Origin: Promethearchaeota archaeon
GTDB lineage: Archaea; Asgardarchaeota; Lokiarchaeia; Sigyniarchaeales; SOKP01
Assembly: GCA_011364925.1 (NCBI GenBank)
Contig: RDOA01000066.1
Coordinates: forward strand, 1 to 14,647
Length of the DNA stretch: 14,647 bases
Reading direction: 5' to 3'
Each line of letters starts with the position of its first letter. Positions within the stretch are counted from its first letter, which is position 1. The translations under genes and the position numbers were made by a program. Positions 1,846 to 4,933 of the stretch are shown here, piece by piece. Below the pieces are notes generated by a model. The model worked only from the letters and a program-made list of their open reading frames with translations, did not search any database and was not told the DNA's origin.

Positions 1846-1939
1846 ATTTATCATTACTAAGCGTTATCCCAATCTGAAGATCTACTTTTTTAGATTAGAT
1901 CCAAAAAGAAAGTTGGATTTAGGCTTAGTAATGATAAAT
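1846..1939 (+). promoter_or_regulatory. Candidate structured 5' leader or small RNA (three-way junction) upstream of the solute-binding protein gene
   Basis: Perfect 17-bp closing stem atttatcattactaagc (1846-1862)/gcttagtaatgataaat (1923-1939). It encloses two hairpins, 1871-1880/1887-1896 and 1897-1904/1913-1920, whose non-Watson-Crick pairs are all G-U on the + strand. Confidence 0.55.
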
Positions 1940-1970: not shown

Positions 1971-4496
1971 ATGAACATGTTAAATAATAAGCGACGTTAT
2001 TCTGTAATGATACTTTTGCTCTTTATCGTCAGTATATTAGCATTTTTTCCATTCAATACTCGCGCTCAAATTCCCCCACCGCTGACCGAATTTACTTATG
2101 GAATGGATTACTATCCCGATTCAATAGATCCCATTGATACCTATGGAAATGATGTAATTGACCAAGTGGTCGAAACATTATTCTACTACGATTTATCCGA
2201 TCCTGAGTTGAAAATCATCCCAAAATTAGCAGAATGGTGGGATGCCGAAAATGAGATATTAGGAGAATGGTCGAACGAGAATACAACATATACGATATCC
2301 TTGAAGTCGGGGATCGTATTTCACGATGATACACTATTTAATGCTGAAGTAGTAGTATGGAATTTCGACCGAATTTACGCATTCTTAGAAGAAAATCCTT
2401 ATTCTGTGACGTACAGCTTCTATTATTGGCCGGATCAAACACGAATTATTGAAAGTGTAATCCCAATCGAGGATGATGTTGTACAATTTGATTTAAGTCA
2501 ACCTTTTGCCGCCCTTGACGCACTTTTATGCTTTTCTGGTTCTACCATGCTTTCATCAAATTCATATCCCGAAGATGGAGAATTAGTGGGAACTGGCCCT
2601 TTCATCTATGATGGATTTTTTGACCATGAATTTGCATATGATGAATACAAATTCCATGCTAATGCAAATTATAGAACAGGACCGCCATCCATCGATCTCC
2701 TTACATTTAAAATCATCCCGTCCAGCCGCTTTCCAGATTATCGTCCAGATCGGACGGAAGTAACTCAAGCATTGCTCAATGGAGACGTGGATTACATTAA
2801 AAGCCCCGATTTCACTATGTTCTCTGAACTTGAATACGATCCGGAAATTATACTCGTAGATGCGGGCACAACAGCAAGTTCTTTTTACTTTGGAATGAAT
2901 AATCAATTAATCCCGGATTACATGAGAGAAGCAATTTCATATGCCCTTGATTACGATAGAATCATTCAGGAAGTTACACTAGGTGAGTCTGTAAGATCCA
3001 TGTCTCCAGTTCCGTTAGGAATAAGATACGCTAATTGGGAACTTAATGTTCCTGGAATTGGATCGTATGAAGACAATATTATAAATGCGAGGAACGCTCT
3101 AATTGACTCCGAATTGTATGAAAATCTGCCTCCTCCCGACTTTGATGAAGAAAATAATATGGCTTGGCAAGCATTAGCTGAATCTGAAGAAACGGCTACA
3201 GGGGTATATAGTTTTTCTCATCACTGGGGTGCTGATGATTATCGAATGGCATACTTATATATATTACAAGATTCACTTTCCCAGATTGGAGTAATGATAA
3301 ATGATGACGAAATAGATTGGTTTACATTTTATGAAAGACTTACAACACCAGAACTTCGGAATGAATTGAATCTCTATTATCTTGGCTGGGGATTTGATTA
3401 CAATGATCCTAGTAATATGCTGAATAGTCTATATACATTTGATGGAGAAATAAATGGAGGGCAAGTATATGATGATGATATAGATCAAGCACTAGCAAAT
3501 GCCATGATGAATGTAAACCCGATAGATAGACAACGAATTTACAATCGGATTCAACAAAGACTTATAGAAGAGATATATGCTTCATGCTGGTTATATGTCC
3601 CCAGAAATTTTGATGCTTATAATGTAAAATTCATGGGCTTTCAACCGAATCCAATGGAAAAAGTCGATCTTTATCATGTAACCCTTAGTGACAATCTACC
3701 TCCTACTATAATTCACGATACCATTCCCGACGAAATTAAAATAAGCTATACGCGATCTCCACAAATCATCGGTAGTATAAAGGTGTATGATCTGTCAAAG
3801 ATTCTCTCTGTCACTTTTTATCCCTCAGATGATCCTGATCCCGGTTTTTCACTAAGTACAACCTATTTCGAGGGTGAGTATGGTGGAACTACCGTGTATT
3901 TCAGTGAAACTACTGTAATGACCACCGAATCTCTCGAGCGTGGGTCCCATATGCTAAGTCTCTTGATTGTAGATGATAAATGGAACGTTCAAGTTAAAAG
4001 CTTCACAGTAAATGTGTATCGTCAAGCGGATTTAAAACTCCGTGGTGAGTTTGATTATCTTGAAAAAGAAACGGTAAAAATATCTGTTGTCGCCCTAGCT
4101 TTTGATCGAGAAGAAAACTTCCTGCTAATACCCTCAGAAGACATCGATTTTACCGTACATTTACAAATTGTTGACTATAATGGCGTTATTAAGGTGCCAG
4201 ACCAAATCATGCAATATGATTCCAACGGTTTTTTCCACTGGGACTCGAGTGATACCATTCATACCTTAAAAGATATGTTTCCAAAGGGTATCTACATCGT
4301 ACAAGGATGGGTTGAATTTACCGATGCCTCTTATTATGAAGGCGGAAATGATGTAATTCAATTCCATATTGACCCTCCAACAAGTGATACGCCTATTTTC
4401 CAGACCTACCTCGTGATATCTGGTTTTATTGGAGTATCGCTGTTAAGCCTTGTATGCATTTTCTTGTATCTACGAGAACGCCGTCACCGTTGTTAA
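1971..4496 (+). CDS. ABC-type peptide/nickel (family 5, DppA/OppA-like) solute-binding protein with extra C-terminal beta-rich domain(s) and C-terminal transmembrane anchor
   Basis: N-terminal signal peptide (KRR + hydrophobic stretch + TRA|Q). Family-5 motifs VVETLFYY, IIPKLAE, LKSGIVFHDDTLFNAEVVVWNFDR, VGTGPF, MREAISYALDY, GWGFDYNDP, RQRIYNRIQQ. About 230 extra residues follow, then a hydrophobic helix and basic tail RERRHRC. Purine-rich aagagga precedes the ATG. Confidence 0.88.
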   Translation: MNMLNNKRRYSVMILLLFIVSILAFFPFNTRAQIPPPLTEFTYGMDYYPDSIDPIDTYGNDVIDQVVETLFYYDLSDPELKIIPKLAEWWDAENEILGEWSNENTTYTISLKSGIVFHDDTLFNAEVVVWNFDRIYAFLEENPYSVTYSFYYWPDQTRIIESVIPIEDDVVQFDLSQPFAALDALLCFSGSTMLSSNSYPEDGELVGTGPFIYDGFFDHEFAYDEYKFHANANYRTGPPSIDLLTFKIIPSSRFPDYRPDRTEVTQALLNGDVDYIKSPDFTMFSELEYDPEIILVDAGTTASSFYFGMNNQLIPDYMREAISYALDYDRIIQEVTLGESVRSMSPVPLGIRYANWELNVPGIGSYEDNIINARNALIDSELYENLPPPDFDEENNMAWQALAESEETATGVYSFSHHWGADDYRMAYLYILQDSLSQIGVMINDDEIDWFTFYERLTTPELRNELNLYYLGWGFDYNDPSNMLNSLYTFDGEINGGQVYDDDIDQALANAMMNVNPIDRQRIYNRIQQRLIEEIYASCWLYVPRNFDAYNVKFMGFQPNPMEKVDLYHVTLSDNLPPTIIHDTIPDEIKISYTRSPQIIGSIKVYDLSKILSVTFYPSDDPDPGFSLSTTYFEGEYGGTTVYFSETTVMTTESLERGSHMLSLLIVDDKWNVQVKSFTVNVYRQADLKLRGEFDYLEKETVKISVVALAFDREENFLLIPSEDIDFTVHLQIVDYNGVIKVPDQIMQYDSNGFFHWDSSDTIHTLKDMFPKGIYIVQGWVEFTDASYYEGGNDVIQFHIDPPTSDTPIFQTYLVISGFIGVSLLSLVCIFLYLRERRHRC

Positions 4497-4667: not shown

Positions 4668-4933
4668 GGATGTGGCTGAGTATTGTCAATTTCTTGGAAA
4701 AATAGAAAAATTCTTCTATAATCCATTAGCTTCAGATTGCGTCAAAACTACGAGGCATTTTTTGTTTTGCTCTCCTATACTTCCCCCATTAGGGTCTTTT
4801 AATGGAATTATTCACTTAAAAATCGCTTACTCGTTAATGATTAATTGGTCGTTAACATATGTAAGCAATTTTTCGTAATCGTTCTTATTATGAATTACAT
4901 GAATCCATACTCTAGGCATGAGCTCAGCCACCC
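4668..4933. other. End-paired multi-hairpin intergenic element (candidate ncRNA, MITE or decayed gene)
   Basis: gtggctgagt (4672-4681) pairs with gctcagccac (4922-4931). Long internal hairpin at 4818-4873 plus several shorter stems. Confidence 0.4.

Follow-up and report, generated by a model that had tools for sequence, protein, structure and literature searches.

The locus and its features

The window, that is, the whole stretch of 14,647 nucleotides analysed here, belongs to a 3.9-Mb Lokiarchaeia genome (G000) and contains, between a predicted promoter and the gene of a family-5 solute-binding protein, a 94-nt element bounded by a perfect inverted repeat. The features of the locus are the following:

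1777-1790, + strand: upstream box 1, an imperfect copy of the palindrome TTTTAC-NN-GTAAAA and putative regulator site, with the same or a similar box in L026, L027, L029, L032, L050 and L182
1797-1810, + strand: upstream box 2, an imperfect copy of the same palindrome, which begins 26 nt before the TATA box, a spacing common to L155, L156, L007 and L050
1823-1830, + strand: TATA box TTTATAAA with A-rich, BRE-like bases just upstream, fitting the consensus from homologous leaders
1846-1862, + strand: P1 5′ arm (RNAfold), which straddles the predicted start and carries ATCATTA, found at the same place in L028, L023 and L227
1852-1854, + strand: predicted transcription start (C1852/A1853 step), from TATA spacing statistics and PMC5316973
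1863-1871, + strand: single-stranded junction J1/2, with unpaired probabilities of 0.78-0.99 at 1863-1870, overlapping ATCCCAAT (1866-1873)
1872-1895, + strand: P2 hairpin (1872-1880/1887-1895; RNAfold) of 9-10 bp with two G-U pairs
1896-1921, + strand: P3 hairpin (1896-1904/1913-1921; RNAfold) of 8-9 bp with one G-U pair and a purine-rich loop, stacking directly on P2
1923-1939, + strand: P1 3′ arm, which closes an inverted copy of 1846-1872 extending inward to 1913 (85% over 27 nt)
1965-1968, + strand: GAGG, a possible ribosome-binding site outside the structure, common to the closest homolog
1971-4496, + strand: family-5 solute-binding protein gene (PF00496, E 1.8e-43), with signal peptide, C-terminal extension and membrane anchor

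The original prediction had described P1, the junction, P2, P3, the TATA-type box and the ATG, all of which were confirmed in position. Its distance of 31 nt from the element to the ATG is correct for ATG 1971, counted from 1939; ATG 1977, on the other hand, is more likely the true start codon, and is preferred because the alignment with the closest homolog (P0003, locus L048; 56-58% identical) begins there. Named relatives of the protein come from Lokiarchaeia/Promethearchaeota. The genome encodes seven more family-5 members, and permease genes are found elsewhere, none of them adjacent. Some relatives of the gene (P0128, P0003 and P0129; G061:C144, G018:C163 and G107:C96) are very long, with frames of up to ~3,600 codons, and carry family-5 binding domains in tandem arrays of two to four, in some cases as fusions with beta-helix (NosD-like) or family-6 binding domains. 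A five-codon upstream ORF (1931-1948) has its AUG within the 3′ arm of P1.

A very stable three-way junction

Both the minimum free energy (MFE) and the centroid structures calculated by RNAfold for positions 1846-1939(+) correspond to a three-way junction of -34.6 kcal/mol (z -8.78), a stability that none of 200 shuffled sequences equalled. The closing helix P1 is formed by 17 pairs (1846-1862/1923-1939), all of them Watson-Crick in the MFE structure as originally predicted, and a lone unpaired G1922 is left between P3 and P1. The register first proposed for the inner hairpins (10 bp for P2 and 8 bp for P3) becomes the MFE if only the inner part is folded; the full-length fold shifts the P2 and P3 pairs. 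The three G-U pairs (1876-1891, 1879-1888 and 1898-1919) can wobble on the + strand only, and the inner hairpins fold only as sense RNA, in keeping with the strand bias that had been claimed: the minus-strand fold retains P1 and loses both of them. When the interior is taken alone, a window picked post hoc, its z-scores as RNA are -3.1 to -3.5 on the + strand against -0.4 to -1.05 on the - strand, and -1.2 and -0.4 when folded as DNA. The probabilities of P1, P2 and P3 are ~0.99 or more for transcripts starting at 1796, 1846, 1853 or 1856, both at 37 and at 15 °C, and with the predicted starts at 1846-1856 the fold model has the transcript paired from its first nucleotides. The three-armed RNA fold is real, very stable and non-random.

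At the genomic level, no perfect inverted repeat with a spacer of 3-400 nt in the 3.9 Mb of G000 is longer than P1, the sole one of at least 16 bp, and the best 100-nt window over the element (-35.1) beats all 21,129 intergenic windows with a GC content of 35% or less. The element is present in a single copy (BLAST, nhmmer and covariance model), and its P1 arm occurs elsewhere in the genome always with at least two mismatches and never as a pair. An unbroken Logan contig of 3,127 nt from run X1, possibly the source sample itself, spans the element with zero differences, and an assembly error is not an obvious source of the element. Runs X3, X4 and X6 gave no close contig over the element; a contig of X3 (2.9x) that matches 1664-1831 with one difference, followed by 37 unlike letters, offers a hint only. 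Strong folding is also found in intergenic windows at C52:28226, C66:7066 and C4:301 of G000, whose sequences are unrelated. A cluster of five RATCYRAA-like half-sites in the element, the densest in the genome, was dropped as circular, the pattern having been derived from the element itself. As a side observation on this assembly, which is rated 100% complete, ARAGORN without intron search detected only 11 tRNA genes; many of the missing ones may have introns or be unassembled.

Promoter and predicted start of transcription

The TATA-type box that had been noticed upstream of the element, TTTATAAA, is the only TATA-like match within 200 nt before the start, and is now backed by an upstream box at a fixed spacing of 26 nt, which also occurs at three other promoters of G000 (C101:11957, C101:14125 and C101:4119). 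The palindrome, intact in several homolog leaders and also present in L158, often occurs as a tandem with copies 20-21 nt apart and 26 nt before a TATA, and is a candidate site for an activator of a Lokiarchaeial regulon so far unstudied. A sigma-70 promoter scan does not apply to an archaeal host.

The start of transcription is predicted at 1852-1854 because TATA words in G000 peak 29-31 nt before the ATG (40 words at -30, where the background is 14), because in two C101 genes with the same box and TATA the distance from TATA to ATG is 29 and 31 nt, and because an 8-bp TATA box is centred ~27 nt upstream of the start site (PMC5316973). Such a start lies inside the 5′ arm of P1, which would leave ~10 pairs in the RNA and ~7 of the 17 perfect pairs untranscribed. 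The chance of further perfect pairs beyond the transcript is 2.5e-4 for seven pairs and 0.009 for four, so that, if the predicted start holds, the full repeat would not be explicable by RNA pairing, which points to an origin at the DNA level. A second TATA-like word (1765-1772), located at the end of a 248-bp piece described below, could give rise to a longer transcript holding all 17 pairs. On the minus strand, a TATA-like word (1963-1956) is found 28 nt from the arm, versus 27 nt on the plus strand, and lacks an A-rich BRE; this mirrored arrangement is probably due to chance.

A start-region word shared by homologous genes

The 5′ half of the element resembles other leaders of the gene family. 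The word ATCCAAT is present on the sense strand of 18 out of 96 non-redundant homolog leaders, versus 2.6 expected, and on the antisense strand of a single one; the expectation takes the leaders of G000 as background, and kin among the homolog leaders are not independent. The enrichment was seen in a first set (10/33 leaders, 0.9 expected) and replicated in leaders fetched after the motif had been chosen (8/63, 1.7 expected), whereas ATCATTA failed to replicate in the later set (5 versus 3.1). Carriers among family-5 binding-protein leaders include L047, L048, L182, L185, L227, L276 and L302. In seven of the 96 leaders ATCCAA lies 31-36 nt after the start of the TATA, which places it at the start site, an arrangement found in almost none of the background leaders, which is to be read as a pattern chosen after looking. 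These data make ATCCAAT a candidate initiator or initially transcribed element specific to family-5 binding-protein genes.

The element itself bears a one-base variant of this word, ATCCCAAT, 111 nt before the ATG, as compared with 112 nt in L048 and 110 nt in L182, and words similar to the 5′ arm of P1 occupy the same position in L028, L023 and L227, the last one with just 16 nt to its ATG. The 5′ half of the element thus looks like ordinary start-region sequence of the gene family, as far as such short words can tell, and the 3′ half repeats it in reverse complement over 27 nt (85%), with a second ATCCAA.

A fold without close relatives

Rfam 15, scanned with E-values up to 1, gave no match at the element, in line with the claim that it belongs to no recognised family, and a single chance match to SNORD45 elsewhere in the window. 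A covariance model, whose reach is limited by its being built from this one sequence, detected nothing in 134 family genomes, nor in ~150 loci of homologous genes and BLAST matches. BLAST of the element against 153 genomes of the order returned 18 short matches, and those inspected fell in coding or unrelated DNA and are chance hits. Exact arm-pair patterns were absent from metagenome, genome and viral collections, no close relatives came out of the search for related loci, and a literature search found nothing on Asgard riboswitches or MITEs in the collection covered.

The leaders of homologous binding-protein genes tell the same story. Among 112 of them, the longest perfect repeat does not exceed 13 bp and is mostly of 7-10 bp, versus 17 bp here, and of 37 leaders that were folded just one (L030) approaches the stability of the element. 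This leader (G036:C189) shows a different structure, a perfect 11-bp plain hairpin right after ATCCAAT, with z about -6. The leader of the closest homolog (L048) folds no better than its shuffles (z -0.67). A 14-bp closing stem can be drawn in it at an equal distance from the ATG, but L048 was rejected as a structural homolog, given this z-score and a pairwise alignment without significance, which 80 out of 1,438 unrelated leaders score equally well. Of the covariation check proposed in the original prediction, the 112 leaders were collected, and no structural homolog on which covariation could be computed was found among them. The nearest relative found has ~57% protein identity, and the comparison reaches no closer than that. 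The element is most likely lineage-specific and recent.

A rearranged intergenic region

The DNA adjoining the element shows traces of recent movement. A 248-bp piece (1524-1771) recurs with 96% identity in another species, at an unrelated locus (G024:C176:4329-4576, L154), where its right end is a TATA 31 nt before another gene, and the same left end is seen in a contig of run X6. Within it, a fragment of 62 codons resembles the C-terminal end of a WD40 protein (L157). Neither terminal repeats nor a transposase were seen for the piece, which looks like DNA that moved recently. A palindrome at 1508-1540 has its centre exactly on the left end of the segment, and is probably a product of the junction; a second palindrome (1540-1559) abuts the first one, lies inside the segment and is present in G024 too. 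Of the 40 intergenic windows with the strongest structure in the genome, three flank this binding-protein gene. On its 3′ side, the region 4668-4933 is also structured (-69.3 kcal/mol for 280 nt on the + strand and -67.9 on the - strand); it is single-copy in G000, and that part has no match in 134 family genomes. From these sequence comparisons, the intergenic region appears as a patchwork that has been rearranged recently.

A leader with no sign of switching in the fold model

The competing pairings from which a two-state fold had been deduced are present as described, but a two-state fold is not borne out: they form a rod inside P1 that lies 4.2 kcal/mol above the MFE and is populated at ~1% (pair probabilities of ~0.01 or less for starts at 1796, 1846, 1853 and 1856, at 37 or 15 °C). 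Forcing either fold leaves the accessibility of GAGG 1965-1968 and AUG 1977 identical in the equilibrium model, no U-tract or terminator follows P1, and the spacer past 1939 is A-rich, so that no expression platform emerges from this model. The predicted start at 1852-1854, within P1, would leave most of the element in the RNA, although not all of it. A ligand-sensing, riboswitch-like leader as originally proposed is not borne out by these results: with the tests that could be run, neither a family match, nor conservation among homologous leaders, nor an expression platform was found. Of the broader claim of a new cis-regulatory RNA or small RNA, what stands is an undescribed, sense-biased structure, with no Rfam match and placed between a promoter and a binding-protein gene, whereas ligand sensing and switching are not supported. 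A structured leader is the likeliest reading of the element.

Origin of the element and alternative explanations

We consider, with a probability of roughly 0.5, that a local inverted duplication gave the binding-protein mRNA a static structure at its extreme 5′ end, specific to this lineage. The start region (~1846-1872) would have been copied in reverse ~40 nt downstream by template switching during replication or a similar process. Template switching is known to produce perfect stems in one event and to homogenise their arms (PMC8794818, PMC8604942), and an inverted duplication of this kind would yield the perfect arms in one step, regardless of the transcript boundary. P2 and P3 could derive from smaller events of the same kind or from selection for pairing. 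That all three G-U pairs favour the sense strand suggests, weakly (one chance in eight), a selection on the RNA that a purely neutral duplication would not need. Transcription would begin near 1853, and the first ~10 bases would pair with 1923-1932, closing an always-folded three-way junction that leaves no free 5′ end. The likeliest effect would be the shielding of the mRNA from 5′-to-3′ decay at a constant expression level, a stabilising role that we infer only, and the structure may also be almost neutral. Translation would begin 38-45 nt downstream, at a GAGG/AUG unaffected by the fold, and regulation of the gene would more likely take place at the DNA level through the two upstream boxes.

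Other explanations start from the DNA as well. The arms could be two copies of the start-site motif acting as inverted sites for a repressor bound at the start and ~75 bp downstream, through looping or as a roadblock, the fold being a mere by-product. The repeat does straddle the predicted start, its inverted copy has its own ATCCAA at a spacing about as in L047 and L276, and the recurrent placement of ATCCAA after the TATA, post hoc as it is, would fit; but the homologs carry the motif on the sense strand only and not as inverted pairs, operators seldom need 17 identical bases, and the inner hairpins form in the sense RNA only, which makes this reading unlikely. Somewhat less likely still is the lone remnant of a MITE or other mobile hairpin with 17-bp ends inserted at the start site, the fallback of the original prediction. 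Perfect terminal inverted repeats, a leader that exceeds those of several promoters of this type by 70-90 nt and the recent patchwork nearby speak for it; yet the single copy in G000, flanks without direct repeat or target-site duplication, the failure of four runs to show any empty-site joint of credible length, the absence of exact arm pairs from the collections searched and a 5′ half resembling native promoter sequence all speak against, and the fallback is not supported. An invertible switch, in which inversion of the 60-bp interior between the 17-bp repeats would make a surface protein phase-variable, is highly improbable. Leader switches working by DNA inversion are known in Clostridioides difficile, the perfect repeats lie between a promoter and the gene of a membrane-anchored surface protein, their extent is a property of the DNA, and the flipped interior adopts a different fold (-30.8 versus -34.6). 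However, the window has no recombinase gene and G000 contains one tyrosine recombinase and no resolvase-family match, the X1 contig shows one orientation and no strand-change joint (contigs, it is true, drop rare variants), and similar short T-runs occur in both orientations.

At the RNA level, the junction displaying the family motif could bind a metabolite or a protein and control the gene. The location before a binding-protein gene, an asymmetric three-way junction with P2 and P3 stacked, wobbles proper to the sense strand and a junction overlapping a conserved, sense-strand-specific word speak for this, but aptamers show conservation of both structure and sequence (PMC8241225) and this one was found nowhere else, the scarcely populated rod leaves the ribosome site and AUG equally accessible with no U-tract after P1, and homologs have the motif without a common fold, sometimes 16 nt from the ATG. 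Such a sensor is quite improbable, and the same doubt applies to its evolutionary version, a newly born regulatory RNA in which the inverted duplication would have caged AUCCAAU in the open strand of the junction to be read by a metabolite or an RNA-binding protein. More doubtful than either would be an independent small RNA, some 87 nt long and driven by the 1823 promoter, with the gene read through or separately promoted. It would have its own promoter directly upstream, closed ends and the most stable low-GC intergenic window of the genome, but no U-rich terminator follows 1939, no second TATA with a usable spacing precedes the ATG, and the sequence is unconserved among the 134 family genomes searched.

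Comparison with known systems

The proposed static leader can be placed among known structures; the element is a real feature of undescribed sequence but known kind. Its three-way junction recalls the hammerhead ribozyme, with a CUGAAGA (1874-1880) that fits the CUGANGA core, but this candidate was rejected in view of the lack of a GAAA in register after stem II, of a stem III or UH site, and of any Rfam match. Motifs of SECIS elements, C/D boxes or k-turns, bulge-helix-bulge introns and integron attC sites, compared by eye, did not fit either. With MITEs and REP-like mobile hairpins it shares a size of ~100 bp, perfect terminal inverted repeats and an intergenic location, but it is single-copy, lacks a target-site duplication, and no partner transposase end was found. 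Three-way-junction riboswitches (purine, TPP) and the fluoride riboswitch of Thermococcus kodakarensis, in 2021 still the sole natural riboswitch with experimental proof in archaea (PMC8241225), are also comparable in their leader position before a transport-related gene and in the three helices around one junction, whereas the element has no Rfam match, no conserved aptamer in relatives and no expression platform.

If the newborn-RNA reading were true, the locus would be a snapshot of a riboswitch-like element arising in one step from promoter sequence, and any ligand sensing would be notable, with native archaeal riboswitches being almost unknown. As a one-off leader structure, the element is a minor feature, which shows that a perfect-looking RNA fold can occur without sign of conserved function. 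More transferable are the ATCCAAT word and the palindromic box 26 nt from the TATA in Lokiarchaeial family-5 genes, which offer testable handles on Asgard regulation.

As to its origin, the closest parallels are the inverted repeats produced by template switching (PMC8794818, PMC8604942), which also combine a long perfect stem restricted to a single lineage, an imperfect inward extension and nested short reverse-complement repeats; unlike in the cited cases, there is no ancestral sequence for the element and the event is not reconstructable. As to its working, the element differs in some respects from mRNA leaders with a single stabilising hairpin, being a three-way junction, unconserved, hosted by an archaeon and with a start that is only predicted. 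The type of such 5′-terminal stabilising stem-loops is the leader of the Escherichia coli ompA mRNA. Like them, the element is very stable, its predicted beginning coincides with the first nucleotide, and the ribosome site downstream is left free, so that, by analogy, it would work most like a 5′-terminal stabilising structure.
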